64,000 nucleotides of DNA, taken from assembly GCA_905331295.1 (NCBI GenBank), contig CAJNYD010000464.1, positions 1-64,000 of the forward strand. Reading direction: 5' to 3'. Below, one piece after another: positions 6,272-56,045 of the stretch. Made by a program: the position numbers and the translations under genes. Each line of letters starts with the position of its first letter. Position 1 is the stretch's first letter. This stretch comes from Rotaria socialis. Its lineage: Eukaryota. The notes beneath the pieces were generated by a model that was given only the letters and a program-made list of their open reading frames with translations, was not told the DNA's origin and did no database searches.

Positions 6272-7700
6272 ATGAATAAGATTTACCAGTCGAAAATTTT
6301 CACCATATTTTCGAATATCTCGCTCCGCATGATCTTCTCAATGCTTTCGAAAGACTCAATCGACGATTTGACATTATGTTTGCTCAGCAGCCACTTTGTT
6401 TACCGAAGAATCGACAAATGAGTACTCACTTATATTATCATTATTTAAAGAAAATTGTTAGCAAACATGCTTCACAGATTGTTTGCCTTCATTTATCTGA
6501 ACGAAATGCACCATGTGCAGTAGATTATTTTCTGCCTGAAGTGCCATTAAATGAACTCACCTGGCCATCATTGACCATTGAAGATGTTTCACATAATGTC
6601 CTTGAAGTACTGCTTTATCATTCTTCATTATTATCTAAAATTCATTCATTATCACTCGATGTCGGTTAACATCGATTTTATTGTGATCAATATGATGAAT
6701 GTTGTGATCTCGACATTACAGAATATACGCGTAACTTTTTCAATGTAAGTGACAGATCGTCGATGGAGATGATCAACTAAATTTGTTCGTTTTTATGGTT
6801 TAGGGCTCATGGCAATATTGAGAATGAATTGTTACTTCAAATTCCATTAAAACAAGCATTCGCATCTGAACTACGTCATAACAATCTGAAAATCTATGCA
6901 GATGTAGCTTGGGTTTTAACTTTTTTCGAAAATCTTCAACGCTACAGTGGACTTGATTGAATGACTATATCAAGTTATCAAAAGATTCGCTGATAATAGT
7001 CATTTTCCACGAGTAACAATATTACGACATTGGTTAACTTTATCAAAATCGAAGATATTTACATTTAAACTGAACTTGGACATAATTTATGCCTTCAATA
7101 ATAGCGAAACTCAAGAAGCGATCTTTGCCGAATATCGACTAACAACTGGTACAGAATCTGCAGCACGATATGGAAAGATATCGATAGTAATAATGATTCA
7201 ACATAGAGCGTCGAATGCGTTGAAGACGCACCAGTGAACGACTATGCTGAAGAAGTAAGTTCGATGAACGAAAATGAACTTCACATCACTAAGCTCTCTT
7301 TGTCTAGATCGACATTTATGAACTGGATTATGTCGAAGACGAACGGCTCGTTCAATTGGCAGCAATACATTGTTGGCATCATTTGAGGAAAATTAATCTC
7401 GAAGGTGATTATCCTGACGATAATTAAGTGTAATGCCACAGATTTATTACTGATTTATTTTTTTTGAATATAATCTAGTAGCGTTGTTGGCGATAATATT
7501 TCGCATTTACTTCATACTGCTCAACGATCACCCTATTTTAGTGAACTATATATCGAATCAGATCTGGATTATGGTCGTGCTCTTTCATTGAATAAACAAT
7601 TGGAAAGCTTACTTTGTCGTCAGCTTGTAATCTTACATTTTACTACTAAAGAAGCTAATAATTCACTTGGTGATCTTGTTCGTATTATTGATAAGTGTGA
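6272..7700 (+). pseudogene. Degraded F-box-like protein gene
   Basis: N-terminal FHHIFEYLAPHDLLNAFERLNRRF resembles an F-box start. Multiple stops and frameshifts, short introns. Coding-like sequence ends at a telomere-like repeat at 7701. Confidence 0.55.
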
Positions 7701-9697
7701 TGTGGGTGAGTTTAAACAATCTGCAGCTGTACTCATGCTCCATACACACCCTCACGCCCTAAATTACTTCAAATGAATCAAGTTGTGCATAAAAAACACG
7801 GTGATCGCTGAAAGCGCTGCGGCATAAAAGGTGAAAATCAAGAATCACTTTTCATAGAAAGTTCGTAAAACAATATTTCGTCTTTCATACATTTGTTTCG
7901 AAAGAAAGAAATGTTTTAACTCTTCTTTTTATTGAAATACAAGAGGTCATTCATTGTCAGCAAAAACAAATTAGAAATCAACATATTTGAAAATAAAAAC
8001 ATCTGTTTCTCTTAGCATCGAGTCAACGCAAACAAAAAGCAAATATTCTTTTTTTCTACCAGCTTCTAGCAGTCTGAAGAAACATCGCGGCTGTAACTTT
8101 TCTAATTACTAGAAGAAACCATGAATAATGCTCTCCTATATTTAATGTTTACTTGCAATTATGATGTGAATACTATAGGTAAGTGCATTGAGGCAGAAGA
8201 CAAATTAAAATGGGCAGTCCGTTCAAGATTGATTAAGCGCAAGTTGGGTGCGCTCGCGTTTGCTGTGCCAGATCTGTATTAAGATATAATGAATGAAACA
8301 TATTGACGTGAGCCATTGATCAGATATTGATTTATAATGATTAGATGAATGAGTCGATTAGTCATATTTTGAATATCGATTACTGAATTTCAATCGTGTT
8401 TATAACATAATTAATGGGCATGCGAGTGTCTGGTAGTGATTTATTATGTTGGAGAACATTCAGACTATCCGTGAAGTTGAAAAACTTCGCCGTGAAGAAA
8501 ACGACAATGATCACCATATAAATGACTCAGTTAACTATAAACACAAGCACCGCAAGTAAATTTAATAGATGTCCTCCTTCCATCTGCCTTTCATAAATAA
8601 TGATTGGCAGACCCTCATTATGGAAAGTATGCGATGATTTATACTGGTCCGAGGGCGATATGTATCATTGTGAGCAGTACGTAAAATAATGACTGCCACT
8701 CTGATCAGCTATATTTTTCTGAACTATCAAACATCGTTTGAAACGAGAGAAATTAAGTTATAGATCAATGCTCTTTGCTCAGCCAGACAAGTGTGGATAT
8801 GACTGTGACTGTGAGTGGCAATAGAAGACTAGCAAACCACTCACATCCACCCATACACATACACACTTTTTTTCTGTTTTCTATCATGGCGAAGAGAACG
8901 AGAAACAAGCAAGATCCTACTTATACTGATCTCTAATCGACAACCAGTTATTGTTTTTAATTATTGATGTTTGAAACTGGGAGGGAGAGGGACATTAAAA
9001 TCCTCACCTTAAAACGTACCCTCACTATTTTCTTCGAAAATATGTGTAACTTCCACAAAGTAGTTCCTTATTAAATACAGGTAATTCATTAGATTTATAA
9101 ACGGAGTCACATTTAGTTTAATCACTTCTTCGCCTAGGGTTGTTTTATATCAACTTGAATCTCATATATTCTAGACTTTCAATCATTAATACCAATATAG
9201 TCTTTATTATCAAAAAATATTTTTTTTGACACTATTGAATATGTAGTATAACGGCGCGTACTAAACTCATGCTATACTGGAGAAAGAATTATTTCAGTGA
9301 TAATCGCTGAAGCATACGGATGCTTATCTTTTCTTTTCTTTCCATGTTCTACGATTATGCATTGATAAATAGTGCTTTTCAGGTTCTATTTCTTCTTTTG
9401 CACATTTCACTACATTGTATTATCTCTTCACTAGAATATGTTGTCAAATGGCACAATCATTGTCTCTTGTAGAAATACTGTATTTTACAAATAGTTGACT
9501 GGAAAGAATTAAATATCTTCACTTTCCTTTTATTTGACTCAAGAAATGTAAATTGTCCAGCTTTGCTGTTGACCTGAGAAGACTTTTCAAATAAAATAGA
9601 ATCATGAGTAAGTTAGATATTAAATTGATTTGTGCTTGACGAGTTCAGTTACAACTTATCTCGTAGTGTCAAACTTGAAGCTTGAATTCAATTGAAT

Positions 9698-10522: not shown

Positions 10523-13500
10523 ATGAACATTGTTTTTTTATAGAATATATTAATTATGAACAATTTATTTATGTTTCGTCTTACTGTATCTTTATAGCAA
10601 AACTTATATAAAACATCGTCGATCTCATTGTCATCATTATCATCAAGAGAGATTTATTCAAGAATGAAACAGCTGATGGATTCAAAAGAATATAAAAAAC
10701 TTTCGATTTTTTCGATCAACAATTTCATTCGTGTACAGATTTTGAAATAAATCTGGCATTAAAAGCATGTATATTAGTTTAAATGAATATCAACGTGGTA
10801 TGAATATTCAAAAAAAAACTTTCTCAAAATTCACTTAGTAATCCTTATATTCAAACAACACTTATTCAACTTTATAGTGAGTCATTTATTTCTTTAACTA
10901 CTCAATTATTATTGGACGTACGATAACAATAAACTATTACTAATGTCATTTTGATTCGCGATTTAGTTAAAATTTTAAAAGATTTTATTAATAATCTATT
11001 TATTAAAACGGTTCTTTCTTTTATGAAACATGTGATTTATAATACTAAGCATTCAGTAAAACTACGAAAAGCTGTTGTGAGAAGAAAACAATCAATTATA
11101 AATTTTTGAGATATTATCATTAAATATAAAAATAAACAATTTTTACTTGCTTGTTTTTCGTAAACTTGGAAATGAAAATGAAAGCATGGAGCTTTTCGAT
11201 AAGATCTATGCTCACCTAATAAGTCTAATAGGCGTTTAAAAAGTAAAAATAATTCACAGTTTATTATTTTTCAATTTTTTTAACACAACACTTATTTTAA
11301 TATGACAAGATAAATAATAAAGCGATTTCTTAAACTGCATAAAAAGAAAAATCTTCTAGAAACGTTTTCATGAGAAAAAACGATGATCTCCTTTTTCTTG
11401 CTTCTTTCAGCATAAAACATCTAAGAAGTTATTAAAATTTGAAAAACCTACATGATACAAATTGGTAAAATTTTGAGTGGAGAGTAAAATCTTACCAGAG
11501 CAACTTTCACGGTTGATTCAACAAAACATACAACATTATTCTGTAATATATTTTAATAATTAGAGATAAATAAAATAACTATTTAATAAAAAACTCATAT
11601 ATCCATTGATTGAAAACCATCTCTGTTTAGAGGAAATTATCCAAGTCTTTAAGATCAAGATTATAAATAATTACGTTATCACGAACGAATAAGTGAAATT
11701 GGCGGAAGAGGCAGAAAGGAAAAACGCTGAAAAGGAAACGTCGAAACTGGGAATTGCAGAAGGTAAAAACGTCGAAGAGGAAAACGTCGAAAGGAAAACG
11801 TCGAATGGAAAAAGTATAATTAATAACAGTGTCGAAGAAAAACTGCCAGAGAAAAAAATTAGAAGAATTTTGAAAAGGAAAACGCAGAATGAAAAAGATG
11901 TCTATAGATAACGAAATTTTTTTCTTTTGATTTGGTAATCAAGGCACAGCAATTATTGAAGGGATTAGCATTGCTACTTGGATCACACAAAAAAAAGAAA
12001 ATAATACTGATAAGCTTAGTTTTCTTTTTTTTATTGTATTTTATCATATAATCGAATAAATTTTTATTTTTCGTTAAAATTATCAAAAAACGCAATTTTC
12101 GACATTTACCTTTCGACGTGTTCCTTTTTCTAATTTTTTCTTTCGACGTTTAGAATTTCTGTATTTTCCCCTTCTATATTTTCCTTTTCGGCATTTTCCT
12201 TTTTTTTCGACGTTTTCCCTTTCTGCCTTTTCCACCAAACCCGAATAAGTCATCTGAAAATAATACTTCGAATAATTCAATATTAGACATTTAAAATTAA
12301 AACTATGTTAATATCTTATTTTATTTTTATTTCTAGTGCGATCTCGTGATGCCAATAATGCTTACTGTTTATTCTCTACAATTACCAATAAATCAAATTA
12401 TATCTATGCAACTATGTTAAAAGGTGATGATTATTAGTTATGCCATTTGACTATTAAACATCACCTTATTTTCAGGTCTTATTTCAAATAATATGCCGAC
12501 TAAAGTGCTCGATTTATTAGATGAAATGAATATTGAACCTAATCAAGCTATTCTCGCTGTTTTATTTAGTGCTTGTTCTCGAGTTGCTAATGATCGAGCA
12601 ATGAAAATTGGAAGAAAACTTCTTGATGAAATGCCTAAGAATTTTGTAAATGGCAATTATATTCAAAATTCAGCAATAAATATATTAATAAGATTTGGTG
12701 ATGTTAGAAGTGCGAGAAATCTTTTTCACATGATCCGAAAAAAGAACATAATTACTTATGGAACTACGATGAATGAATATAATATAAATAGTGAACCATT
12801 GAAAAGTTTAAAACTTTTTGAAGAAATGAAGCGAAATGATATAAATGCCGATGCAATCGTATTAATCATACTGATTGGTGCATGTGCACGACTTGGTATG
12901 CTTTCAAAATGTCAATCAATTGTTGCTCAAATACCTTTGCACTTCTATGAGAATCAACGTATACGCAATTCATTAATTGATATGTGGGTATGTATTGGTT
13001 GTGAAAATTGTCTGAACGAATAATTTTATTCATTCATTTTTTTGTCACAGGGAAAAGCAGATTCAGTTAAGGATGCTCAAAAGATTTTCGAATCGATTGA
13101 TAAACCCGATGTTATTACATATACTGCAATGAGTGAATATTCTTTATCTTTATTTTTTCTATCATCATATTTTTTTACTAATTTCTCTTTGAAGTTAATT
13201 CTTTTGGGCTTAATCGAATGGGCTCAGAAGCTGTGGATTTATATCGAAAGATGCCTAATAATCTACACGATGAAGTTTCAACCATTTGTGTATTAAATAC
13301 ATGTTCTCATTCGGGTCTTCTTAATGAAGCGCATTCTATCTTCAATGAAGTCTCTCATAGAACGGAAAAAAATTATTACTGCAATGGTTTGTATATTTTA
13401 TTGTTTTTGTTAACTATGAACATATTTTTATGATTTAGATTGATTGTTTAAGTCGCCTTTTTTTATTTGATGAAGCACAAAAGCTATTAGAAGATTATGA

Positions 13501-14593
13501 AAAATCCAATCCACCTTATTCAGCTATGTACAGTAAGTGTTGTTTCGATATTAATTTGTTTTTGTTGATTCATTATTTATTTTTGACTCTAGTGGCTATA
13601 TTATCTGGTGCACGTAGTTCTCATAATTATATTTTATCAGAAAAAATATATCTAAGAATGAAATTATTGTTTCCAGATCAAAAAGATGCTCTCACATCTG
13701 GTTCAATTCTTCTTTGTAATATATATTCATAATTAGGTGATCATGAAGAAGCAGAGAATATTCGATTGAATCGAATAAAAGAAGTAGGAAAAAAGTTCAA
13801 GCAGATTTATCGTGGACTGAAGTGAATGGTGAGATAGTGGTAAGAAAATTTTCTAATAAAAATCAAATTTCAAAGAAAAGAATTTGTTCACTTTTTTAGC
13901 AATTCAAAGCTCATGACCGTTCTCATTCTCGATCAAAAGAAATTTATGCTGAAGCTGAACGTATATCATCTGAACTTATTAAACATGGACATAATTATGA
14001 TTCAAGTTGGATTACTCGTCCGTTACATGAAAATGAAAAAATGGAATCTATTTTATGTGCTCATAGTGAACGACTTGCAATTGCCTTTAATTTTATTCAA
14101 GAAACAAAACCATCGTTTATTCAAATTACAAAAAAATCTTCGTGTCTGCGGTGACTGTCGTAAGTTATCAGTTATTTTTCTATGATTCTCAGTAGCTTAT
14201 GTATTTCTTTTTGTGAAACACGATCTGAAAGGAGTGTTGAAGTATATAGAGGAGAAATTTGAACCCACCCCGGGACAGGGAAATTAAGTAATTAGCTAAT
14301 TGATTTCTCTGTCACGGTTTGTGATGGTTTGTGAATTCTCTGCCACAGTCTATGATGGTCTCTACCGACTCCATAGATCAAAATACAGACCGTGGTAGAC
14401 GGGTTCCAGCAAAGGAGTTCCATCTTGTTTCACATTTTAATCCCACAGGGATTGCGCTAACAGCTTTTCTTATTCAGATCAAGCTGCAAAATTAATTGCA
14501 AAAATTCGTCAAGTCAATATTGTTGTTCGTGATGCTAATTGTATCCATCACTTTTCTACTAATAGAACGTGTTCGTGCCAAGATCATTTTTAA
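10523..14593 (+). pseudogene. Multi-exon pentatricopeptide repeat protein with C-terminal DYW-type cytidine deaminase domain; disrupted as assembled; start approximate
   Basis: PPR motifs (VITYTAM, ICVLNTCSHSGLLNEA), LSWTEVNG, FKAHDRSH, HSERLAIAF (14062), KNLRVCGDC|H, VRDANCIHHF, CSCQDHF* (TAA 14591-14593). Frameshifts in A-runs at 13366, 13789 and 14130; TAA at 13730; more lesions in exon 1. Confidence 0.9.
11695..12241. mobile_element. Non-autonomous Mutator-like (MULE) MITE in PPR intron 1
   Basis: Imperfect TIRs (ttggcggaagaggcagaaagg / ttggtggaaaaggcagaaagg) with aacgtcgaa subrepeats. 9-bp direct repeat CGAATAAGT at 11686-11694 and 12242-12250. Empty site near 47750. Confidence 0.85.
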
Positions 14594-15299: not shown

Positions 15300-16774
15300 T
15301 TAGGCAATGGGACGATACGATTGATAATAATTGTCAATCCACTGATTGAGTTCATCGATGTGATAGCTAAAAGTATCATTGTCAGGCTCTGCTTTTAAAA
15401 CGAGTATTCCATTGTGAATAATGTAGAAGCGGAATGGCCAGGATCCATATGTCAGATGGAAAGTGTTGTTCATACTATCTACAAGCATGGGCATTTCAAA
15501 TTTGCAATCCTTCTGACATTCACGGGCGTTGACCAGGCGTTGTTCGAGTGTAATTGGTTGGTCTACGCGTGATATTATTTTACCCATAGGCCATTCATCG
15601 TGGGCATGTGCCTCGACAATATAAATCACCAAGAAACACAGACCATTGGGCGCATGCGAGCGAAATAGCGCGCTAGATCAAATGAATAATAAGTATAAGA
15701 TTTAATCGAATCAGCAATATTTACTTAATTCGCTCGGCAGACGCCCGAAATGGAGGTCAGCTAGTTGAGCCAGCCAAAATGACTAATGGCTGACCAGCTG
15801 TGATTTGTGAGAAAAGATTCCTGGACTGACCTTCAGTGGTATACAAATCGACGTCACGCGCACACTGGCCTTGACTGATCAGACCTTGTGTGATCTTGTT
15901 GTGCTTAACTAGAAATAAATCAACGGAGATATTTAATTGTAACATAGAAAAGTTGTAGTATTCAAGATTGAGCCATTGATTTGTACTTGAAAATCTCTAC
16001 TGACTGTGTTAATAGTAAGAATAAAATATAGCTTTTATTTCGAAAACGTTTTTCTGAAAAGCAGATTAACTTCAGAGCAACGAAGCGTCTTTTTATGTTT
16101 CTGTTCCTCTCTTTGACTCACCGTAGTAAGCTGATTTCACGACTGGATCATCTGGAAAACGGTGAAAAGCAGTTCGCAGAGCATTGACATCATGATATCC
16201 AAAATGTTCCACGACATGTTGTTGGATGAGATCGAGCACATGACTTCAATTTCATAGCAAAAGTAAATTTAGAGTACGAGATTATGTGCAGAAGTAGAGC
16301 TAACCTCAACGAAGCTTCATCGTTGTGATAAAAGTCCATTAGTTCTTGAATCGGCTCGGATAGTCGGATGCTTGTTTCATAAGTAATCATTTCGCGTACG
16401 GTCTCGATTGGAGGGAATTCAGTCGATGTTTTGATTTTATCAAAGCCCATACGACCTGATGTTGGAAAAAACATCTTGCATCTGGCTCGGGAAAAGTCCT
16501 GTAAAAAGTGATAGGAGGAGCCATTGTGATTGTCGTTTAACAAATTCGGTGGTGAAAAGGGTGAAAGTTTTACCTTATGTTGTTTATTATTAATTGGCGG
16601 AGCCTTCACTTGGGCTGCAATGGCATCTGCTGTTTGCTGCTCAATGGTGGCTTGTGCTTGACTCGCATCATTTTGTTTGTCTTGGTGTCGAACATTTTTC
16701 GAGCCTTTCAAACGTTGAAAAAAACGCGAAAAAACGTTCTGGTGGCCTTTCGAAGGTGATTGACTGCTAGCCAT
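15300..16774 (-). CDS. DIO: Iodothyronine deiodinase-like selenoprotein, 382 aa with Sec248; exons 16774-16305, 16243-16122, 15908-15725, 15672-15300
   Basis: Three GT-AG introns (61, 213, 52 nt) give a 1149-nt frame with one internal TGA (15759-15757) in PLVILAGSTS-U-PPF. Also IYIVEAHAHDEW and DSMNN..YGSWPFRFYII, matching deiodinase motifs. SECIS lies downstream. Confidence 0.92.
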
Positions 16775-19095: not shown

Positions 19096-20091
19096 NNNNN
19101 NNNNNNNNNNNNNNNNNNNNNNNNNNNNNNNNNNNNNNNNNNNNNNNNNNNNNNNNNNNNNNNNNNNNNNNNNNNNNNNNNNNNNNNNNNNNNNNNNNNN
19201 NNNNNNNNNNNNNNNNNNNNNNNNNNNNNNNNNNNNNNNNNNNNNNNNNNNNNNNNNNNNNNNNNNNNNNNNNNNNNNNNNNNNNNNNNNNNNNNNNNNN
19301 NNNNNNNNNNNNNNNNNNNNNNNNNNNNNNNNNNNNNNNNNNNNNNNNNNNNNNNNNNNNNNNNNNNNNNNNNNNNNNNNNNNNNNNNNNNNNNNNNNNN
19401 NNNNNNNNNNNNNNNNNNNNNNNNNNNNNNNNNNNNNNNNNNNNNNNNNNNNNNNNNNNNNNNNNNNNNNNNNNNNNNNNNNNNNNNNNNNNNNNNNNNN
19501 NNNNNNNNNNNNNNNNNNNNNNNNNNNNNNNNNNNNNNNNNNNNNNNNNNNNNNNNNNNNNNNNNNNNNNNNNNNNNNNNNNNNNNNNNNNNNNNNNNNN
19601 NNNNNNNNNNNNNNNNNNNNNNNNNNNNNNNNNNNNNNNNNNNNNNNNNNNNNNNNNNNNNNNNNNNNNNNNNNNNNNNNNNNNNNNNNNNNNNNNNNNN
19701 NNNNNNNNNNNNNNNNNNNNNNNNNNNNNNNNNNNNNNNNNNNNNNNNNNNNNNNNNNNNNNNNNNNNNNNNNNNNNNNNNNNNNNNNNNNNNNNNNNNN
19801 NNNNNNNNNNNNNNNNNNNNNNNNNNNNNNNNNNNNNNNNNNNNNNNNNNNNNNNNNNNNNNNNNNNNNNNNNNNNNNNNNNNNNNNNNNNNNNNNNNNN
19901 NNNNNNNNNNNNNNNNNNNNNNNNNNNNNNNNNNNNNNNNNNNNNNNNNNNNNNNNNNNNNNNNNNNNNNNNNNNNNNNNNNNNNNNNNNNNNNNNNNNN
20001 NNNNNNNNNNNNNNNNNNNNNNNNNNNNNNNNNNNNNNNNNNNNNNNNNNNNNNNNNNNNNNNNNNNNNNNNNNNNNNNNNNNNNNNNNNN
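19096..20091. other. Assembly gap (996 N)
   Basis: Run of N; ORFs spanning it are artefacts. Confidence 1.
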
Positions 20092-29259: not shown

Positions 29260-32200
29260 TCAAGCTAGCTTTGAATTAACTTCAGCAATCATGCGCCGAA
29301 CTTGAGCAATATTAGCTTCATGTAGTGGTTGATTGTTAAGCAGAATACTCAAACTATTATCCAAGTAAGTTGGGCACTGAGAGAACTTGCCCTGTTTCAT
29401 GAGAAGATCACTGATTAACATAGATGTATAAGCGATCTGCGGGTGATTCGATGGAAATGAACTTGTTTGAATCAATAAGCACTTTTCATGACTCGATAAA
29501 GCCTCATCATACTGCTGCTGCTTAACTTGTATATTTCCGATCGATCGGTAAGTAGAAGCAAGATCAATATGTTCAGGTGATAATGTAATTAACTGAAGAT
29601 TTAAATATTCGTTGTAAGCTATCAAAGCTTCTTGGTATCGACCCAATAAACGGTAAATGATGCCCGATTTCTTTACAGCATGCATAGTCATTGGATGAGT
29701 TCGTGGTGCACATTCCAGTTGGAGATCCAAAACGAGCTGGTAATTCACAAGTGCTTCGGATAAATGTTCGTTCGTAAAGTGAATGTCACCAATACGAACA
29801 TAAATATCAGCAAGAGAACTGTTCCGATATTTGATCGAGTCTTGATCTGTCTTCAAATTCGTTGAAGAAAAGGATTGAAATAAAATCTTCAAAGCCGATT
29901 CATAGTTATCCAGTGCTTCGGTCAGTTTCTGTTGTTTCTGGAGAATTGTACCAATCATTGTGTGCGTATCAACAAGATCACAATGATAAGATGGAAGCGA
30001 AATAGTTTGAATAGACAAGCATGCTTTCAAGCTTGATAAAGCATTGTCAAACTGCTCTAAGAGCATATAGTTGATACCCAAGTACCAGTAGTCTTTGGCA
30101 ACCTCAGGATCCGTTGGTGATGAGCATTTGAGTCGAATATCTAAAGCACGTTTGAAATTGTAGAGTGCGTCGGCATGCTTATTCTGACCGCTGAGAGAAG
30201 AACCAATTGTTCTATACGTAAAGATAAGGTCGGGATGGTCTGAATGCAATGAACTCGCTTGAAACTCTAAAAATTGTCGCCAGTTTGTCAATGGATCCTG
30301 ATGCTGGCGTTTGCTTAAAAAATGCCCTTGTACCATTGATCGACTTAACGCTTCTATTTCCAACATTGGCATTGCCGAATGCTCAATCTCGAAGCTTGCT
30401 TTGAATGCAAATACTGCTCTTTCGTAGTTATTCAACTCGGCGTAAACCATTCCTATACGTTTCCAAAGTACTGCTATGGATGGATCCGTTGGTGGCTTAA
30501 CTTGGAGTCGGAAATCCATAGCGAGCTTATAGTTTTCAAGTGCATCAGAAAACTTGTGCAGTTTGCACAAGACTGTACCAATAAACTGGTAACAGTTAGC
30601 ACATTGTAGCTGATCGATAGGGCGGCAGTTCTCCATAATCCTAAGAGATTCTCGGAAGTTTGACAAAGCTTTCAAGTTTTCTTCCTTCTGCTCGTAGAGG
30701 TCACCAATTAAAAAGTAACCACGGGCAATCTGAGCCAACGGAACCGGCCACACTGTCGAGCCCATCTCTAGACATTTACCGAATTCATTTGATGCTTTTT
30801 CAGCATCCCCCAGTCGACAATACAGAAATCCCATGCGTATCCGAGTTTGTGCTATCTTGGAATATGTTGATGGTAAAGATTCAAGTTGAATTTGTAAAGC
30901 ATTTTCGAAATGTATAAGTGCATCTGGAAACCTTTTCAACAACTCCAAAGTCTCGCCAACATCGTCGTAAGCGCGAACCAGGTCAGATACACAATCAGGG
31001 TGGTACGTTTTTGTAATATGTAACGATTTTTGAAAACTGGACAAAGCATAATCGTACTTCTTCAGTTCTAAGTAGTTTTGTCCAATGCGGGAATGGGTGC
31101 GTGCGATGTTAATATGCTCCGGTTCCAAATAAGTCCTTTGAATTTCTAGGCGCTTTTCAAAGTTGAATAAAGCTTCTTCATGCTGTACGCAGTCTTGATA
31201 ATGCCAAGCTTGTTGTAGATATATATTGGCGATACTCTTTGATCGACTTGTGTTGAAGATATTGTAATCCTCCCTTGATATACTTATTGGCATGTCCCTG
31301 CATCTCTCCCACACAGCGAATGCCGCATCAAACTTGTTCTGAGCTACATAGACCCGGGCGATTCTATCCAATACCTTCGCCATTAATGGAAGTGTCTCAT
31401 GAATATTTTGTATTAGACTTTCGTAGGCTTTGTTATAGAACTCCATAGCTTCCGCTAGTTCTTCTCTTTGACGATAACATTCTGCTTTGATCATATAAAC
31501 ACCACATATTTCATGTGGAGCAATATTTTCTCCTTGTACTGTTTCGATATATTCATTGATGCTGGATAACGCCTCGTCTATCTTATTTTGCCCATAATAT
31601 GCAACACTTATTGTCAGCAATGAAATCGGATCGTTTACTCCGTTGGATTGTGCTTGTGTGAAAAGCGTCTGACAGAATTCATTTTTCGATACAAAGTTCA
31701 CGTCATTGTCTTCTGTACAGTTGACGAATCGATTCATTACTTCAGTCGCTCTCCTGTGGGTGTGCCCCAGTGGCAGCGAACGCTCTTGGACTTTGACAAT
31801 TTCTTTTACTATAGCAGATTCTTGACACTGTTGACCCTTGAGGTTCTTCAATACAAAAATTTGTTGGAGACATGTGGCAAGATATGGATGCGTCGCTGGT
31901 AGGCTATGTTGGAGAAGTTCATATGCTGTGGTCGAGTATGACAGGGCATCGGAGTAACGTCCTTGTTTATAACGAAACCTGCCAATAGTCATGTAAGCTA
32001 GACCGAGCGATTCTTGCTGAGATTTTGAAGTTTGATATGTTTTGTTAGCAACCGCTGCTTCAATATTTTCTATGGCAAGATCCCATTGGCCCTGCATGCA
32101 GTAGAGCAGAAATTTGCGCTGAAGATCTATTTTGCTGCCTCTTGAAATATGGCACCGTTCATCTGGAAAATTGAATAGCGATTGTAATTCACGCATTGCG

Positions 32201-33540
32201 TCTTCTTTCTTTCCTAGGTTTAAAGCAAACTCTGCCAACATTATGGATACAAGTGGTTTCAAATCTTGAGTGATTGTTTGAAGCGCTAGCTTGCCGATCT
32301 CCTTCGCCTCTACGTATTTACCCTCAAAATACATAAGCTCAATAAACGATAATACGTTTGGAGAGCCCATATTTAACCGTATGTGATGAGTGAGTCGTGT
32401 TAGTTCTGGGTCGTTATCGTGCGTTAATAGCAATTTGATGAGCGAAATATTACGGTCATCGGGTGGTTCAATCGATTGGATACGAAAAACGCTGCCCATC
32501 GTGAAGAGGAACTCCTCTTCGTCTTTGAACAGACTCCAATCGCGTATGTCGATATAATGAGCGACAGTGGGTATCGATGGGCCAGCTTCGATTTCAAAGA
32601 GCACTGAAGTCGTATGAGGAGGCTTACTCGAAGTTTCACTATATATCAAGGCAACGCAATAATTTTTTGTAGTGGAAAGAAAAGAATTGAATGACAGGAG
32701 GCCGCCAGCTTTTTTCTTCATTTCATCAAAAGTAGCTGTTGGTATGCTCATACCTCGATAGACCTTCAAGATCGACGATTCTTCAGAGTTCACATGGCAA
32801 TTAACAATTTGTTGATGAAGATCTTTGATGAACACACGCATTGAGTACAAAAAGATTACATCGTGTTCACGTAATGCTTGATTCAAATCTCTGTAGAGAA
32901 ACCAATCTTTCGTATACCATTGAATAGGTTTCATTTGATCATAGCGGCATTCAAATTCGCAAATTTTTTCAATATCCTTCGGATGTTGATAGTGACTGCG
33001 AAGAAAGTCGATCATCTGAATCCGGTCACAGTCTGAATAGTCCATCTCTGTTAAAATGTATTTGAGCAATTGGCCGTACATGAACATCACTTCCTGTTCG
33101 TTTTTTGAATCTACATCTGTTAGTGAAGCAGAGAAGCTGCTCACAAAATTGAATTGTTTACTATCATCTTGTGTGTACGACTCTAGTATCGGGCATATCG
33201 ATGTGATACTATTAATAACACCTTTAACTTTGTTGCGTTCCTTTATCCAAGACAAATTCGTTGATCGATTCAAAGAAAGTACATAAATCTCTTTGAGTTG
33301 CTTGACCTCATGAAGTACTGAAACAATATTTTCACCATCCAATTCATTAACAATTAACAGAATTTGATGGTCTTCAGTATCCGTCACATAATCGACGCAT
33401 TCGTCTAGGTCATCGAATATTTCAACAAACTTCACTATTCGCTCAAGTTCCGTTTTCGCTTTGTTTATATTATCGCTTCGTGCAAGATCAGTTCCATCGA
33501 GCAAGACGGCAACACATATTTCTGACTCAAACGATAACAT
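29260..33540 (-). CDS. Mono-ADP-ribosyltransferase domain plus long TPR array, 1426 aa, single coding exon
   Basis: WYT..FLYRDLNQALR, VYRG, FLSTT and EEEFLF (R-S-E type ART), followed by many ~42-aa TPR units (HPDL/HINIA..Y..IG). Confidence 0.9.
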   Translation of the reverse strand: MLSFESEICVAVLLDGTDLARSDNINKAKTELERIVKFVEIFDDLDECVDYVTDTEDHQILLIVNELDGENIVSVLHEVKQLKEIYVLSLNRSTNLSWIKERNKVKGVINSITSICPILESYTQDDSKQFNFVSSFSASLTDVDSKNEQEVMFMYGQLLKYILTEMDYSDCDRIQMIDFLRSHYQHPKDIEKICEFECRYDQMKPIQWYTKDWFLYRDLNQALREHDVIFLYSMRVFIKDLHQQIVNCHVNSEESSILKVYRGMSIPTATFDEMKKKAGGLLSFNSFLSTTKNYCVALIYSETSSKPPHTTSVLFEIEAGPSIPTVAHYIDIRDWSLFKDEEEFLFTMGSVFRIQSIEPPDDRNISLIKLLLTHDNDPELTRLTHHIRLNMGSPNVLSFIELMYFEGKYVEAKEIGKLALQTITQDLKPLVSIMLAEFALNLGKKEDAMRELQSLFNFPDERCHISRGSKIDLQRKFLLYCMQGQWDLAIENIEAAVANKTYQTSKSQQESLGLAYMTIGRFRYKQGRYSDALSYSTTAYELLQHSLPATHPYLATCLQQIFVLKNLKGQQCQESAIVKEIVKVQERSLPLGHTHRRATEVMNRFVNCTEDNDVNFVSKNEFCQTLFTQAQSNGVNDPISLLTISVAYYGQNKIDEALSSINEYIETVQGENIAPHEICGVYMIKAECYRQREELAEAMEFYNKAYESLIQNIHETLPLMAKVLDRIARVYVAQNKFDAAFAVWERCRDMPISISREDYNIFNTSRSKSIANIYLQQAWHYQDCVQHEEALFNFEKRLEIQRTYLEPEHINIARTHSRIGQNYLELKKYDYALSSFQKSLHITKTYHPDCVSDLVRAYDDVGETLELLKRFPDALIHFENALQIQLESLPSTYSKIAQTRIRMGFLYCRLGDAEKASNEFGKCLEMGSTVWPVPLAQIARGYFLIGDLYEQKEENLKALSNFRESLRIMENCRPIDQLQCANCYQFIGTVLCKLHKFSDALENYKLAMDFRLQVKPPTDPSIAVLWKRIGMVYAELNNYERAVFAFKASFEIEHSAMPMLEIEALSRSMVQGHFLSKRQHQDPLTNWRQFLEFQASSLHSDHPDLIFTYRTIGSSLSGQNKHADALYNFKRALDIRLKCSSPTDPEVAKDYWYLGINYMLLEQFDNALSSLKACLSIQTISLPSYHCDLVDTHTMIGTILQKQQKLTEALDNYESALKILFQSFSSTNLKTDQDSIKYRNSSLADIYVRIGDIHFTNEHLSEALVNYQLVLDLQLECAPRTHPMTMHAVKKSGIIYRLLGRYQEALIAYNEYLNLQLITLSPEHIDLASTYRSIGNIQVKQQQYDEALSSHEKCLLIQTSSFPSNHPQIAYTSMLISDLLMKQGKFSQCPTYLDNSLSILLNNQPLHEANIAQVRRMIAEVNSKLA

Positions 33541-35787
33541 CTTGTAGTCGAATATTGCTCATGCAGCCCACTATACATAATAATTCTTATTATATTGAGC
33601 TTTTTATGATTACAACATTTTGATAAGATCTCAAAATGGATAGATATGTCGAAATTAGTGACGATTTCAGGATTTTGGGACATCTTGTATCTCAGCTTCT
33701 GAGCACGAACCCTGGATGAATCTGATACACAGTGGCGTTAGACCTCAATGATGAGTTCTTATGGAAAACATTTTGTGATCGGAACATGTGAAAAGTAATA
33801 ATTTGATTTCCTCCGCCAATTCTACAATTGGTTTGTTTTTATTAGTATTTCTTTTTTTTAATGATCTGATCCTAATCTAGATAGAATTTCATCCATAAAC
33901 ATTCATTTCTTCTGAACAGATGTAAACTTGTAAATGATAATTAAAATCTCTCGATGAAATTCGATGTTGATTACGATTAAATTATTAAGAAAAGAATACT
34001 TATAAGAGTTCATTATTGTTCATAAATGTTATCTAGGTCACATGCGCTGAAGTCGAAGTACAGTATACCCGAAATTCGTGGATCCATCACTGGTCGAGAT
34101 TTAAGCTGCAGACTACACGACTCTCACGGAACTCAGGGAAGGGACGAGTATTGGTGTGTGAAATCCGTCGTCCATGTCTCTCACATCCAGTTAGATAGGT
34201 GTCTAAAAACACATTCAAATTACCTTGAAACGATTTTTGCTTTGTTGATTGAATAATATTTCTCGCAAAAAAAGCAACTCAATTTATTCATCAAAGCATA
34301 GAGTGAAATGTTGTGCAAAAATAAATCGTTCTCTCTACTATTGTGAGAGAAGTTAAAGTGGGAAGATCCACTCTACATATGCGTAAATAGTTCTCTACTT
34401 GAACGTAAACGAATTTAAACAGTTCTATTAACTAATGGAATTCTTTATATCGATTTCTTTTCCTAGAATGCATACGAAATGATTCACTCTGAATCAGAGT
34501 TCGGAGGTACGCATTTGCACTTGTACTGCTCGTATTTTTTTTGAGTAAAAGTAAAATACGTTTACTTGCTGTACTTGTACTTGTCCTAGCTCTGGTCTGA
34601 ACAAATCGACTCTTTTAATATTCTATATAGAAATGGGTGACAGTAGATTCTTCTTCGGTTAATAAGTACAATTAAGAAATGTTGACATTAAAATCTAATA
34701 TTGAATCACTCGAACTAATTTTCTCAAAGTTCTAAAAGATAATGTTTTTCTCATCGTTTCTTCATTAATAATTCATTGTTGACAATATTTACAAATAAAA
34801 TATTTATACACAGAAGCAAAGAGAGCAATTATGTTTTTTCAACTGAGAGAAAAATCCTTGCTTTTTAGCTCGTCCAATATGATCTAGAATAAACAATTCA
34901 TTTTTTTATTATTATTTTCCTCTCATCTAGATATCTTCAATAATCTACTTAATTGATATTCAACAATCGACAATGGAAGAAAAGCTCCCAGCACAATTGT
35001 TGCCACATTAAAATGTGAAATATGGTTAAATTGTTTTTCTGGAACTTATCTGTCACGGTCTGCAAGGAAAGAAGATTCGAATTTCTACCCTATCACTGTA
35101 AACAAGAAAATCGAATTTGATTTTTTCCTCGTCATGAAGCATTTATACTTGATGGTGGAAATAAAATCCAATACAATATAAGCAAATAAAAAAATAAAAT
35201 AAAATACCATATGAAAAAATAAAATAACAAGCATTGCGGACTAAAACAAAATAAAAAATCAAACAAAAAAAGATGACAGAATAGAAGCTAAAATAAAATA
35301 AAAACTAAAGTAGAGCAATAATTAACAAAAAATAAGAACTAAAAAAAAGAGAACTTTAAAGGAAATAAAAAATAAATAAAATGAAAAAAAAGATTTAACA
35401 ACTCCTAATAGCGAGTTGAAGAAAATAATGATTGTTTAACATTATACCTACTGACTTATATACTAGACAGGGCAAGGACTAGGTGACGGTCTTTGTTTCG
35501 ATAATCTTGGAAGAAATAGAATCAATTTTTTCGTTTTTAAAAATTCTCAATCGATATTCTATAAAATCAGAACTGATTTTCAAATGGTCTGAAATCTATT
35601 GTGGATTTTCCACTTTATAGAAAAATGATACCTTTTGAAATTCCAATTGAATTTCTATAAATGGGAAAATCAAGTATTTTCAATTTGTTCAAAATTCAAC
35701 GAATAAATCATCAAGCTTTAAAAATGCTTCACCTTATTTGAGATCGATTTTCGAATTTATAGAATTTGAAAAAAATTACAATGTATA

Positions 35788-36336: not shown

Positions 36337-37243
36337 TATACTTCAACACTCCTTTTCGATCGTATTTTAAGAAGGTAAAGGAAACGAAAGAAAAATAATT
36401 TCATTCGCGCATGCGTAGTCGTTATTTTGAAGTGAAAGTGACTAAAATATAGAGAATGTTTTTAATCATACGAGAATTATTCTAACGGAGTTGTTTGTAT
36501 GAAATCAGATAGATTAACTTAATATCACACTTGGTTTAAATAATTTCTGAATACGATTTTCTTGAAATTTTATGGTTATTCAAATACATAGAGGATGCAT
36601 AGGATAGGATAGGGTAGGTACCGAGTCAGATGAGCAACAAAAAATAACGCGCTAAAAGAACTTGAAATTTCAGCGAAAAAAAAAGTGAAAATGTGAGTTT
36701 TTATGATTTTTTTCTTTTAAATTTTGACATGTTTTGACGAGTTCTTTTTCTGTTTGTTTGTCTGAACGAGCTGGGTGTGGGTGTGGCGTTATGGGGGTGC
36801 AGCTGCGCATAAACACGGAAAGATCACTATTCACCCACACCCTTGATACAACAATTGATTACTATAGGTATGCAGCAGTGTTGATTCAAATTGAATTTTT
36901 ACATTTTCAATCAATTGTATTATTGATTGAAATATGTCATCTACTTCATTAGTTATCAGTATCGTTTTGGATGATATGATCACTTATAAAGATAATATTC
37001 AATCAATCGAATGCTATTAGATCATGGGGCGACATGAAGAGAAAACGAGAAAATTTCATTTGTTTCAAACTGATCTAATTCAACTTGATTCACCAAATAA
37101 ATGAGGATATGAGCGTGGATGGATATTGACTGAACGCTTAACAACGCTCCACTGTACCTACACACACACCCACACTCCATTCATTCGATAAAAAACATGG
37201 ATAAGATGTTTACTTATTTTTGATGCACTACTGAATACTTTGT

Positions 37244-47094: not shown

Positions 47095-47204
47095 TGATTT
47101 ACAACTATTTCGCTATCCAGTGATCAATCGTATCGTCCAAAAGAATCATTATCTTTCTTCCAGATAAATCATCCTGTTCGGCTAGCTTCACTCTGGTTCT
47201 TTCT

Positions 47205-47922
47205 AAACGAAAAATATAATTAGAGAATTTTAGATATTAAACAAATATATTCTAAACGGATCTCGAAATCACTTTTTCTATATAGCATGAACAGTTTATT
47301 TATATGTCGTCCTATCCTATTTTTATATCAAAACAGATATAAAACTTATTCAAGTGTAAAAAAACACTTATGGATTGAAAATAATACAACTGCTAAAATA
47401 TAGTTGGAAGAAGAAAACAATCAATCAGAAATTATTGAGACAATGTTAATTGATCCTGTTTTTCATAAGCCTACAAATGAAACTAGAAACCTGAAACTTG
47501 TTGATAAGATAAATAATAAAGCAAATTTTTGCACTCAATGAAAAGTAATCTTTCAAGAGAACTTTTCGTGAGAAAAACGATGGTCTCCTTGTTTTTGCCG
47601 TAAAATATCCTAGATTGTTCAATTATATTTTAATAATTAGTCATAAATCAAATAATTACCTAATAAAAACCTCATATCTTCATTTGATTGAAAATTATTT
47701 CTGCTTAGAAGAAATTATTCAGGATTAAGACTAGAAATACGGTCTGACGAGCGAATGAATCATCTGCAAATAATACTTCGAATAGTTCAATAATAGGCAT
47801 TTAAAATGAAAATCATTTCGTCATCTTATTTCAAGTGCAATCTCATGATATCAATAATGCTTATAGTTTATTCTCTACAATTACCAATAAATCAAATTAT
47901 ATCTATGTCACTGTGTTTAAAC
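47205..47922 (+). pseudogene. Truncated paralog of the 5' part of the PPR-DYW gene
   Basis: Collinear similarity to 10450-10615, 11350-11690 and 12250-12422 (shared ttattctctacaattaccaataaatcaaattatatctatg); lacks the MITE. Confidence 0.85.
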
Positions 47923-48233: not shown

Positions 48234-50306
48234 CTATTGTGGTCTCGACTTATTTAGCGATGCATGTCCATATTTTTCAAGCCATTTAAGTTCTTCTCGA
48301 ACTTTGATCTTTCCATGCCATGGATTGATAGTCAGGTCGTGTCCTTCGTTTGGAAAAAGTAATAATTTCACAGGAACACCAAGATAATGTAACCCGCGTT
48401 CTAACGTTACACTTTCAGACGGAGGAACACGTAGATCATTTGCACCACTAACTATATGTGTTGGCGTTTGGACGTAACCTAATTTAAACATAATCGATTC
48501 TTCATAATAGGTTTCCGGTATTTCCCACGGATATCCACCAATATAAGATGCAATATACAACGGCGTATCCATCGTACCCCATAAAGAAACATGCTCAACT
48601 GGTCCAGCACCGGATACAGCAGCATTAAACCGCGTTGTTTGGGTAATCAACCAGTTTGTTAAAAATCCACCATAACTAAAACCGCCAACAGTAAGTCTAT
48701 TTGGATCAGCGATGCCATCGGCAATTAAAGTATCAACGCCAGCAAGAATATCTCGTCCTGGTCGAGATAAAGGATGACCAATAAGTTCACTTAAAAATGC
48801 ATCGCCATATCCCGCCGAACCTCGATAATTAGGTTCCAAAACTAGCCAACCTTCAGTAGCTGCTAATGGAGCCCACGAATACCAATCTCCGATTAACATA
48901 TTGAGACTTGTAGCTGATGGACCTCCATGAATAAGTACAAATAATGGCAAATTTTTACATTCAAACTTTCCCGGTGGATAATGTAGAATTCCTTCGATTG
49001 TACGATCATCTTCACTATTAATCCATCGATATACTTTTGCTCGAGGTAGATTTCGTTCACGAAGAAGTTGATTTTCACAAGTAACAGCTTTCGCGACATA
49101 TAATTGATTGATATTTTCAACAAAATAAACCTCTAATGCGCTTTCAAATGATGAATGAGCAAATGCAATCGACAGTGAATGTGGTGATGTGGCCGAGGAA
49201 ATCAATTGATATGTTCCTTCCCATCCGTGCTGTAACATTACAAACTTTGATGATGACTGCTGTACATATATTTGAACATTGACTCCTAATTGTCCAAGTA
49301 TATAAACACCACCCTGTGGTCGAATTGTATAGCCTATAATATTTCCATTGAAGCCTTTTCCCCAATGTTCAGTCACTCCAGTTGTTAAATCGACCGAGCC
49401 TAATGCATTTTGTGTATCATTATATTTTCCACCAGTCGGTCCCATGGAACCTATTACAAAGAATAGATGTTTACCGTCGGGTGATAATTGCAGATTTTGT
49501 TCCATCATTTTGTTATCTGTTAATCTAGATAGTAAAGATACATTTCTGAGATCAAGTGCGTATATTTCGAAATCATGTGAATTTTCGACAAGCGTTGATA
49601 CGGATGTAAAGACAAGTTTATTTTCCGCTGGAACCAATAAGAGTTCACCAACTAGAAAATCGATATTGGTAATAGTCGTAATTTTCACAGATATTTTATG
49701 ATTTTTATTTTTAATATCAATACGATGGAGAGTAGTACTATCTGTCGGTTTTCGTTGTCGATATTGAACAACATCCTTCCATTCGTTTTGATTCGTCTTG
49801 TTGTCTTCTTGAGATGATGCTATTGAAATGAAATAAAGTGAATTATCATCATTGCCCCATACGATTGCCAGTGGGTTGTGGTTTCCGACTTCGATCAATA
49901 ACGTTTCTTCGGAAATAATATTATATAAATGAATATATTTTTCATTTTTCACCGGTCGAGAACGTTCGTTAATGTTGATTGGGTCTGTTTGTGAGCTTTC
50001 ATCGATTAAGTAATAAATCCAAGCACCACTCGGTGACCATTTTGGTTTGACATTGGGATAGAGTTGGTTAGTAATCAATTTTTTTTGTGTAGTTTCAGTT
50101 CGATAAAGCCACAATGCATCTTCATATCGATTCGATTCCCAAGCAGGACGCAAACTGTGAACTAATAAATAACCAGCATCAGGTGAAAGACTCAATGATT
50201 TATATTGGGTTGAATTAAGAAAATCATCAATTGTTAACTTTGGAAGTGTTTCTGTTGAAAAGCAATGGAAATATGCTACGACGAGCACTAATAAGTAACA
50301 CTTCAT
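48234..50306 (-). CDS. Secreted S9 family peptidase (dipeptidyl aminopeptidase / acylaminoacyl-peptidase type), 690 aa, intronless
   Basis: Signal peptide, SPD/WSP propeller repeats, IHGGP, PNYRGSAGYG, GFSYGG (Ser), DLRV (Asp), EGHD (His). Confidence 0.93.
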   Translation of the reverse strand: MKCYLLVLVVAYFHCFSTETLPKLTIDDFLNSTQYKSLSLSPDAGYLLVHSLRPAWESNRYEDALWLYRTETTQKKLITNQLYPNVKPKWSPSGAWIYYLIDESSQTDPININERSRPVKNEKYIHLYNIISEETLLIEVGNHNPLAIVWGNDDNSLYFISIASSQEDNKTNQNEWKDVVQYRQRKPTDSTTLHRIDIKNKNHKISVKITTITNIDFLVGELLLVPAENKLVFTSVSTLVENSHDFEIYALDLRNVSLLSRLTDNKMMEQNLQLSPDGKHLFFVIGSMGPTGGKYNDTQNALGSVDLTTGVTEHWGKGFNGNIIGYTIRPQGGVYILGQLGVNVQIYVQQSSSKFVMLQHGWEGTYQLISSATSPHSLSIAFAHSSFESALEVYFVENINQLYVAKAVTCENQLLRERNLPRAKVYRWINSEDDRTIEGILHYPPGKFECKNLPLFVLIHGGPSATSLNMLIGDWYSWAPLAATEGWLVLEPNYRGSAGYGDAFLSELIGHPLSRPGRDILAGVDTLIADGIADPNRLTVGGFSYGGFLTNWLITQTTRFNAAVSGAGPVEHVSLWGTMDTPLYIASYIGGYPWEIPETYYEESIMFKLGYVQTPTHIVSGANDLRVPPSESVTLERGLHYLGVPVKLLLFPNEGHDLTINPWHGKIKVREELKWLEKYGHASLNKSRPQ

Positions 50307-53300: not shown

Positions 53301-56045
53301 ACTTCAAATTCAAAGAATGGAAATCTTCCGGTTTTTCTCGAGAATTGACCTCATGGATGAAGAGGTCTATACAAAAAACATTACATATATTCATGTAAAA
53401 AGTTTATTTCTTAAACATTTTTTCATACAAATCTTGAGCAGTATCATATCGACTGTATACAGCCATTGTACAATAAGCAAGAAGCAAGCTATTTGAAATC
53501 AATTTGGTCCGATGCATGATTATTGTAGAAAGATACAGGATGTGAGAGTTTTTTGTATTTGAAAATAAACCGATGACTAACTAGTCATTTTTATTATTAT
53601 TACTGGCGATGTGATTTCATAAGATGGCGACATCTCGATTGGTACTTATCGTTCTAATGCATATCTACGGTCTAGCAATTTTCATGAGTACTATGCGTTT
53701 ACAAATTGGTTTTTCTTTCTGTGCTCGTTGCATTTCGTTTTTTCTTACATTTGCGGTAGGTATGCAATACAAACATGAGAATGAGGAAGGCTATGATGGC
53801 TGTTAGTGGGATCTCACTTCTAGCAGAAACTAAGAGCTAAGTAAAATACTCAAATTCTATCAAAAGACTAATGCTGTGACACTAAACTGGGAATTTTTGC
53901 TCGCAGAAAAAAATCGATTTTGAGATTCGAGATCTACTCCAATGCATGTAGATCGTTACATGAATATATTGCAATTACCGTCACCACATCAATAATCAAG
54001 AGTTAATAACCATATATTTCAATAACGAAAATATTTTTGTGGCGGTCTAATAAAAGCTCGTCAGATAGAAGATTTTTTCTCACTGTTGATGAAGCATGAA
54101 ATTATCTTTCGAGTAATGATTATTTGGAAAAGAGCTTGATTTACTTCCGTTCAAATATTTATGAATCTTTTTAGTTTTTTTCTCAAGTTATCTTTGACTT
54201 TTGTATTTTATTTTTGTTCAATTATTGAGACATTTACCATTGCCAATAGTTCGAAGGGGTTTGATTGTATTCTTCTTTTGGTTCGCTTCGCCGGTTATTT
54301 GTGGTTCTTCATTTGCTCTTACGCGATAATTGTCAAATGGATGGACGATCTTATCTGTATAGTTGGCATTCATGCTTCCTCGTAAAATTTAAAATTAAAA
54401 CGAAAAGACAGATTTTAATATAGCTATGACTTTAGAGTTTTTCACTTAATATTGAACTGCATGCTTCTTTTGTTAGTTACTGGTATGAGATTTATTTCGT
54501 GGAAATGAGTTTTACAAAGAAAAATGTAAGTATACGTGTTACAGCTTCTACAACGCTAAATTTGTCATTAGAAACCTTAGATTTAAGGTACATGATTACG
54601 AAAGCTTTTTCAATTATCAGCATGAGAAAACAAGAATCAAACTAATCTTAACCAGTTTCGTGTACATTTTGCAGAGTAAACATTGATAATCTATCCTGTT
54701 TTTGAAGAATATAAGATTTAAAACAAGGGTTGAAGTATTACGATTTCAAAATTTGTATACATTCGATCCTAATTAGTCATTAGACTTATGGAAAGAAAAA
54801 CGTTACTGACTATTTGTCAACGAATTTTAAAGATTCATTAGACAATGTTTTGACATTTGAGAAATTTCAGATGATTTATGATCAAAGTTGGAAAATGGCT
54901 TAAGATTATTATCTAACTGAGGTTGTTTAAAATAATCCTTTGTTAGATATAACTAGGGTTGGTACATTTACTTTATTTTTTTCCAAAGTAAATAAGTAAA
55001 GTAAATATAAAGTGCCACCTCTAGATCTTATACGTTGCTCGCGAAAAATAAAATATTTCCACTCATCGAAGCTATAGAATTTGTTTTTATTTAGACGATT
55101 TCATCTTTCTAGCAACAATACAACTACCATGTCTGCTATGGTTGTTTCTCGCTAAGAAACGTACGATTCAAGTGACACTCGTAAAATTGATTCTCTCGAA
55201 AACAGTTTAAAATATGCAAAAAATGAAATTATTTACTCTTCTGCATACCAAACTGTTCAATCATAAGTGAGAAGGCAGCAAAAAGAAAAGATTACTCTGT
55301 TCAATTCTATTTCAAGATTTTAATTTACAACTAGCGACGCATATTCTTGTCGGTGAAAAACGAGTGACTATTATGATCTTGAGATGTGCATTTCTGCTAT
55401 GCAGAGTATTACAGCCGCATTCCTGTTACAGTTTCACTCACTGCAGCTGAACATCGCTTCATGTAATTTGAGGTGCTCTGTTGTCTCTGTATACTACAAG
55501 TCTTACGTTTCTACAGCATTTGATACCAATGTGAGAATGTAGTAGGTAATAATTTCCAACAAGCACTCTTTTTTCTGAATTTCAAGTTTCTGATCTGACC
55601 ATCCTGGTAACAATAATAGTTGTTTGCCCGATAGCATTACTGCACAATTTTCCGTTCAAGTTTCTAATCCAGCTGGAAAACTCTGCACCTGCGTGATATC
55701 GTTTGCTTAGTCTAATTCATACATGGAACCGGTACTGGTCTGTTGGCGATCTATTACTGGTCTAACTTTTTAATTTTCCTGCTTTTATCACAAACACTAG
55801 TACAAAGTTGTTATTTGCAGAACGATATAGCTATATCGTTCTGTAAGGATGTGGGTGTGGGAATATGCACACAAGAACACACACACTCACATTCTCAAGA
55901 ACGAATGCAGATGTCAAAGATTGACCGTAGTTCACTTATTTCAATATGAAAAGTTGATCTTTACGTTTTCATGAGTACCTGTTGATCGTTTAAAGAGTGT
56001 TAAAAATATTTTAAACAATTTTTGTTCTAGATACAGAATTTTTAT

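Follow-up and report, generated by a model that had tools for sequence, protein, structure and literature searches.

The window analysed here, a stretch of 64,000 nucleotides of the Rotaria socialis contig CAJNYD010000464.1, contains on its plus strand a PPR-E-DYW gene that extends from 10556 to 14593 and consists of nine exons separated by eight GT-AG introns, six of which have a length of 52-63 nt. A sequence-only reading had proposed that this is a plant-type PPR-DYW RNA-editing factor gene with many introns in an animal-like genome, and the class of the gene, its introns and the bdelloid context are all borne out by our analysis. The start of the gene had been placed at position 10523; however, the ATG at this position is followed by a stop codon six codons downstream and was rejected, whereas the ATG at 10556 is aligned with Met1 of the relatives P0012, P0017, and P0022. 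Pfam searches, which had been proposed as a check, detected both domains: the PPR array with 6e-13 and the N-terminal half of the DYW_deaminase domain with 5e-08, above the cut-off (33 bits for the piece in the window as compared to a cut-off of 24), while the piece in the next frame gave 0.004. The E-like region is confirmed as E/E+ by a Pfam E+ trace and by the alignment of exons 6 and 7 through the E region; in P0012, the Pfam E_motif was found with 9e-05, below the cut-off. Both Pfam and the alignments reveal an array of P-L-S triplets ending with P2-L2-S2 at the locus and in its relatives. With exon 3 as the query, identity reaches 100% for the R. socialis model P0034 and 98% for P0026, and a frameshift-aware alignment with the intact P0012 of Adineta steineri yields 73% identity (460/634), the PPR array of the locus being 200 residues (two triplets) shorter. 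The PG box of the locus is AD as compared to xG in the intact relatives, and the protein ends, as the sequence-only reading had seen, with QDHF-stop (14591-14593) rather than with DYW.

The deaminase signature, in contrast, is not complete as had been claimed: Since one surplus base is present in the A-run at about 14130-14136 between the HSE and CGDC motifs, the two are encoded in different frames, and the His residue that follows CGDC is encoded across intron 8. The locus carries two stop codons and six frameshifts in total (see the table for their positions). When the spliced model is read unrepaired, it stops after 13 codons, and the locus has no unbroken frame that leads from the presequence to a DYW domain and joins HxE to CxxC within a single protein. 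The idea of a working editing-factor gene at this position has thus to be given up in favor of a pseudogene.

Features of the PPR-DYW locus, its inserted elements, and the remnant paralog (positions refer to the window)
Feature	Position	Strand	Description
exon 1	10556..10876	+	presequence-like N-terminus (Arg/Ser-rich, acid-free), first PPR motifs; TAG 10595; frameshifts near 10697, 10775, 10815
intron 1	10877..12336	+	1460 nt, GT-AG; enlarged by insertion
high-copy 547-bp element in intron 1	11696..12242		long imperfect terminal inverted repeats, 9-bp flanking direct repeat
exon 2	12337..12423	+	S-type PPR motif
exon 3	12476..12987	+	PPR motifs P-L-S-P-L-S; frame open
exon 4	13051..13132	+	S1 end, P2 start
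exon 5	13195..13386	+	P2-L2-S2 start; A-run frameshift near 13368
exon 6	13439..13532	+	S2, E1 start
exon 7	13593..13839	+	E1-E2, PG-box region; TAA 13730; frameshift near 13795
exon 8	13900..14159	+	gating domain; HSE 14062-14070; A-run frameshift near 14134; CGDC 14147-14158
high-copy 260-bp element in intron 8	14209..14468		13-bp subterminal inverted repeat, T-run ends; supported by depth and loose ends
exon 9	14478..14593	+	remaining deaminase fold; second zinc site (HHF, CSC); QDHF-stop end
remnant paralog	47198..47921	+	patchwise identity of about 80%: 5' flank, beginning of exon 1 (about 110 nt), intron-1 pieces, exon 2

Two of the introns harbor high-copy elements. The element in intron 1, of which the remnant (at about 47.75 kb) has no copy, is presumably a MITE (Mutator-like by the length of its repeats), and we take the element in intron 8 to be Helentron/HINE-like. 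The second partial copy that had been noticed in the window does exist, however as a remnant only, in which the DYW exons have no match. The turnover of the family had been proposed correctly.

Our work identified many relatives of the locus: 78 out of 80 homologue matches are bdelloid proteins or close look-alikes (41-100% identity). The whole bdelloid architecture can be aligned to land-plant PLS-E1-E2-DYW factors (OTP86 DYW domain, 7o4e/7o4f; DYW1, 7w86; the synthetic protein 9kfx): Residues 230-837 of P0012 align with 9kfx (1.5e-94) including the E1/E2 region, and this protein also aligns with the OTP86 and DYW1 domains. The P-L-S triplets, P2-L2-S2, E1, E2, the gating domain, and both zinc sites are common to the plant factors and the bdelloid proteins; the bdelloid genes differ by being intron-rich and by their animal host, by DHF or DQF ends and by xG instead of PG, and their PPR motifs differ in that P motifs often carry Gly as residue 5 and L motifs contain code-like pairs. 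The HxE pattern is present in 39 of the 78 bdelloid-type matches, HxE together with CxxC in 36, and the complete series through to the final CxC in 20; many of the remaining matches are partial models. Hence, the catalytic residues, the loss of which from all paralogs had been named as an argument against the editing reading, are retained in the family. The intact paralogs, with P0036 as the intact R. socialis member, have kept both the catalytic HxE(x)nCxxC motif and the second zinc site (H, H, CxC), and they reach DYW_deaminase scores of 94-103 bits. The DYW:KP subgroup, which is associated with U-to-C editing, is defined by the loss of the catalytic Glu or by a KP-type motif; neither was found among the paralogs, which have HSER or HSEK throughout. 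A presequence-like N-terminus (basic, acid-poor), judged by a crude rule of composition only, is present in 17 out of 33 distinct Met-starting models of at least 550 residues as compared to 152 out of 2180 internal windows (7%), and the N-termini that fail the rule mostly belong to models that start within the repeat array. In PPR proteins, residue 5 and the last residue of each motif specify the base that is read. The bdelloid pairs at these positions (ND, NN, TD, TN, SD, SN, plus GD, GN, and GS) differ among the paralogs, as expected for sequence-specific RNA readers. The PG box has kept its Gly, and the Pro is found in one of the eleven readable cases and otherwise replaced. The terminal Trp of the DYW domain is important in plant enzymes (PMC7611903), and its replacement by Phe in the bdelloid proteins (DHF in 17 and DQF in three of the 20 paralogs that reach the final CxC) may weigh against a function as editors.

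Bdelloid mitochondrial genes carry what appears to be a footprint of C-to-U editing, a new observation that comes with named candidate codons. A degenerate form of the published R. rotatoria cox1 primer (PMC2784805) served as the query and led to 58 metagenome loci, 41 of which are pieces of T-rich mitogenomes (T about 48% of the coding strand). Because the long mitogenome contigs share the gene order of R. rotatoria and have full cox1 frames that are 87-94% identical to that of R. rotatoria, we infer that the metagenome contigs are of bdelloid origin. The invariant columns of cox1 were defined with an outgroup of 104 insect and Brachionus proteins. At the 98% invariant columns, 23 distinct long contigs exhibit 18 distinct departures, and 11 of these are T>C changes that could be repaired by C-to-U editing (Y18H, I146T, F147S, L149S, L195S, I245T, L246S, F268S, F268L, F377L, and L381S). 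This corresponds to 11 T>C changes in 154 opportunities as compared to three other transitions in 322 (p=4e-4, with kinship between the rows ignored). At the 95% columns, repairable changes account for 11 of the 79 departures in 28 bdelloid rows but for none of the 134 departures in the 104 outgroup proteins, four short or chimeric contigs having been tallied separately. All three C-variants of the TTT codon were observed for F268 (Ser 11, Leu 7, Pro 1). At F377, the Leu codon is CTT in seven out of seven rows, whereas CTT and CTC together make up 95 of the 1873 Leu codons overall. Candidate sites are also present in published genomes, i.e. Y18H, I245T, and F377L in cox1 of R. rotatoria, and L246S and F268L in cox1 of Philodina citrina. 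The base at position -1 of the cox1 candidate sites is T in 16 cases and A in four, but never G, and the upstream composition of 37 candidate sites shows weak biases only (fewer A at -7, fewer G at -3; multiple tests uncorrected). Ala380 of cox1 (Ala in 75/75 bdelloid-like rows, Val in 104/104 outgroup proteins) was also considered as an editing site; this residue remains Ala in short contigs, and it was therefore treated as a plain substitution. Among the protein-only sequences there are Trp-to-Arg changes as well, the underlying codons of which are not visible.

A similar picture was obtained for cob: At 118 columns that are 90% invariant, 64 of the 305 departures in 84 bdelloid sequences are repairable versus none of the 43 in the outgroup (p=2e-4; the outgroup are 33 diverse sequences that define the columns, three divergent rows were excluded, and kinship was ignored). 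The repairable changes cluster in the PEWY-FLF motif (Y272H, F273S/P, L274S/P, F275S) and at L280, and they include F219S and F273S in the published genome of A. vaga and L274S and L280S in P. citrina. In R. rotatoria and Habrotrocha constricta, no repairable departures were found at the 118 columns.

Some contigs allow a comparison of DNA with probable RNA. Six short cox1 contigs are transcript-like: Four start near the 5' end of the gene, two extend past the stop codon, and one has a poly(A) after the stop, the contig ends being the sole basis for regarding these contigs, L016 included, as RNA. None of the six has a cox1 site, as compared to 14 of the 23 long contigs (p=0.017). L016, which is thus probably RNA-derived, is 98.7% identical to the genomic contigs L054 and L021; counted downstream of a chimeric 5' junction, it differs from them in 15 synonymous codons and in two non-synonymous ones, both of which are C-to-T changes that restore an invariant residue (Y18 and F377). 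For cob, nine sites are present in five out of 23 short contigs, and there is no clean split between short and long contigs. In cox1 codons 238-388 of R. socialis, the RNA-like run X12 agrees with three DNA runs at 36 of the 36 listed places under the main haplotype, which in X12 ends near 2652, before F377 and L381; one T>C that is common to the three DNA runs and missing in X12 lies among eight further rows of the comparison. The DNA of R. socialis already has T at the covered cox1 hot spots.

These observations make it very probable that mitochondrial C-to-U editing, as predicted from the comparison of gene sequences, takes place in bdelloids, and we regard the PPR-DYW family as the likely executor of this predicted activity. 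The possibility, raised by the sequence-only reading, of mitochondrial RNA editing by intact relatives has thus gained strong comparative support from the footprint in cox1 and cob: The locus would be a dead PPR-E1-E2-DYW copy, and there is good reason to assume that its intact relatives are editors of mitochondrial mRNAs. It is likely that bdelloids run plant-type PPR-DYW C-to-U editing on their mitochondrial mRNAs, which would be the first case in an animal; the sites would be specific to the species, and their gain and loss would go together with that of nuclear factors. It is conceivable that the proteins are imported into mitochondria via their N-terminal presequence and that the P-L-S array reads about 12-20 bases upstream of one cytidine, one motif for one base. 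The zinc-dependent DYW domain would then deaminate this cytidine and thereby restore codons for Phe, Leu, Tyr, Ile, Ser, Cys, or Trp. Editing sites may appear and vanish between lineages, and the factors may be born and lost alongside: If a site had reverted to T, its factor would no longer be needed and would decay, and this would account for the dead copy at 10556-14593. Doubts concerning editing come from the terminal Phe where plant enzymes have Trp, the mostly replaced Pro of the PG box, and the fact that the counts are not phylogenetically independent.

Two other explanations appear improbable to about the same degree. First, there might be no editing at all: slightly harmful substitutions would accumulate under weak selection in the asexual T-rich mitogenomes, and the DYW family would do something else or nothing. 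The high T content, a paper from 2007 that announces in its title evidence of inefficient selection on bdelloid cox1, and the fact that no edit was located in the comparison of X12 with the DNA runs are in agreement with this idea. However, weak selection should allow all types of changes to pass. Among the radical departures in ten genes within bdelloids, T>C changes were found 23 times in 888 opportunities, whereas purine transitions occurred once in 386. Moreover, the seven non-T>C departures at the 98% invariant cox1 columns are all mild, and the drastic changes Phe-to-Ser and Leu-to-Ser were counted 17 times as compared to four times for the milder Val-to-Ala and Ile-to-Thr. In addition, C at F377, which lies between a pair of haem-ligand histidines, occurs in scattered places on a poorly resolved tree (seven changes, at least two of them forced), and the sole non-synonymous differences of L016 are repairs. 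The radical C>T departures (7/262) match T>C in their frequency per opportunity, which weakens the contrast; editing predicts them as well, as the loss of sites.

Second, the mitochondrial editing might be due to another deaminase, or the DYW family might act mainly on nuclear or cytosolic RNA, e.g. after UV stress. The 60 DYW genes of A. vaga exceed the zero to nine candidate sites per mitogenome contig, and the upstream base biases are weak. However, gene counts in tetraploid-derived genomes include alleles, ohnologs, and decayed copies. The presequence-like N-termini of the paralogs also argue against this possibility. Editing in plants has a comparable site spectrum and avoids G at -1, and both the spectrum and the lack of G at -1 in cox1 resemble plant editing.

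For the locus itself, it is very unlikely that a truncated PPR-only product remains functional or that the lesions are assembly errors. Five of the six frameshifts lie in A-runs, a 292-codon frame is open over the middle PPR motifs of the spliced model, and two lesions, the second stop (13730) and the frameshift near 13795, are not spanned by the listed pieces of the DNA runs. Yet, six of the eight lesions, i.e. the first stop and five frameshifts, are bridged without any difference by contigs of the DNA runs X2, X4, and X7 (they come from two studies, and the window itself possibly stems from one of these runs), with the frameshift near 13368 bridged in X4 and X7 and the DYW frameshift in X4 only. 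All 13 of the listed R. socialis models that reach the DYW region go out of frame at the DYW frameshift, and the 292-codon frame has no presequence and is flanked by stop codons. Close paralogs in the same DNA runs have Tyr at the position of the first stop, and the surplus base at 14131 is absent from them. The locus is a pseudogene, and its lesions are not assembly noise. The data sets listed as carrying the locus include no RNA run, and in the RNA-like run X12, four contigs map to the locus, all of them repeat-bearing; neither result says anything on expression. A plant contamination of the assembly, for which the plant-type domain architecture might speak and which had been named as a possible objection, is refuted by the almost exclusively bdelloid or bdelloid-like matches, the short bdelloid-type introns, the high-copy host elements within introns, and the animal neighbor genes.

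The bdelloid reports to which the sequence-only reading had alluded do exist, and the family has been published with R. socialis included (PMC13386178, PMC4202320, PMC3239186). In the sections covered, these papers describe the family of the locus, with HxE and CxxC kept and a variable PG box and DYW tripeptide; in contrast to the published genes, the copy studied here is dead, and candidate mitochondrial sites are provided in this work. In the sections covered, all of 1,666 metazoan DYW domains are bdelloid, a transfer from plants has been proposed, 58 of the 60 DYW genes of A. vaga are expressed, and a role in UV adaptation is the subject of speculation, whereas edited sites are named nowhere and the words "editing sites" are confined to the titles of two references (Chen, Qu, Zhang 2026, PMC13386178). 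The sections covered of other papers mention the presence of DYW in rotifers (PMC5295000), group the rotifer versions with Naegleria in one tree (PMC4202320), suggest that they could edit mitochondrial RNA (PMC3239186), and describe bdelloid mitogenomes without RNA editing (PMC2784805, PMC3426538). A search of the literature that largely excluded subscription journals yielded no report of targets or edited sites in rotifer mitochondria. The protist DYW systems of Naegleria, Acrasis, and Physarum are likewise non-plant and have few mitochondrial C-to-U sites; there, editing has been shown, whereas it is predicted for the bdelloids. The known cases of animal mitochondrial editing, i.e. tRNA editing, placozoan U-to-C editing in cox1, and U insertion in calcaronean sponges, also repair defective transcripts, but multi-site C-to-U mRNA editing and a PPR-DYW enzyme are not among the cases listed in the covered part of that review (PMC5633667).

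That DYW proteins of rotifers act as editors of mitochondrial RNA has been a guess since 2011; it can now be tested on named codons of published genomes, and an editing assay in E. coli has been described (PMC6397227, as far as covered). If bdelloids indeed edit, a horizontally spread machinery would operate natively in an animal in which plant helper proteins are not known. This would bear on the neutral origin of editing and, for animal mitochondria, on programmable C-to-U editors. Moreover, bdelloid mitochondrial proteins translated from DNA would be wrong at the edited sites, with effects on phylogenies and on estimates of selection in asexuals, and part of the apparent mutation load of bdelloid cox1 would be repaired in the RNA. 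Taken alone, the locus is an ordinary pseudogene from a family already known, and its sole significance is that of a relic of factor turnover.

The R. socialis protein P0026 and similar database models join an upstream gene (window 6280-7776) to part of the pseudogene (12337-14154). Such fused models, labelled 'DYW domain-containing protein', are annotation artefacts, and they may push up the published counts of DYW genes in bdelloids. Many of the relatives' gene models in the database end by read-through into intron 8, the intron that in the pseudogene holds a 260-bp element of very high copy number. The second partial copy presents, at about 47.75 kb, the empty site for the MITE-like insertion in intron 1. 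P0016, a relative from Rotaria magnacalcarata, loses the frame and ends at the same A-run as the one shifted in the pseudogene, and Gln stands in place of the zinc-binding His; this may reflect either common decay or repeated slippage.

Among the bdelloid-like mitochondrial contigs from metagenomes (L001-L057), L011 has the most sites at which C-to-U editing would undo a T-to-C change: nine over five genes, and one more in a separate count. If culturable, its source would be a suitable test species. Codon 380 of cox1, which adjoins the haem ligands, encodes Ala in all bdelloid-like cox1 sequences and Val in 104 of 104 outgroups; this Ala apparently involves no editing. In L022 and L057 the nad1 gene is divided between two frames that overlap, as it seems to be in L007 too; L036/L037 belong with the first two in this observation. 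A frameshift, insertion editing or an assembly error may lie behind the split.

The TPR, S9 peptidase, ADP-ribosyltransferase and NHL-repeat genes of the window are expansions typical of bdelloids. The deiodinase-like exon lies immediately downstream of the pseudogene, on the opposite strand.

Mobile elements, other genes and assembly gap in the window
Feature	Position	Strand	Remark
MITE-like insertion	11696-12242		intron 1; flanked by 9-bp repeat
260-bp element	14209-14468		intron 8
Partial copies of 260-bp element	35007-35062, 36337-36367		
Iodothyronine deiodinase-like exon	15300-15677	-	Pfam 3e-14
Assembly gap	19096-20091		996 N
TPR protein gene	29260-33558	-	1431 aa; intron-poor
S9 peptidase gene	48234-50315	-	
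ADP-ribosyltransferase domain gene	56031-56952	+	
NHL-repeat gene	57544-58233	+
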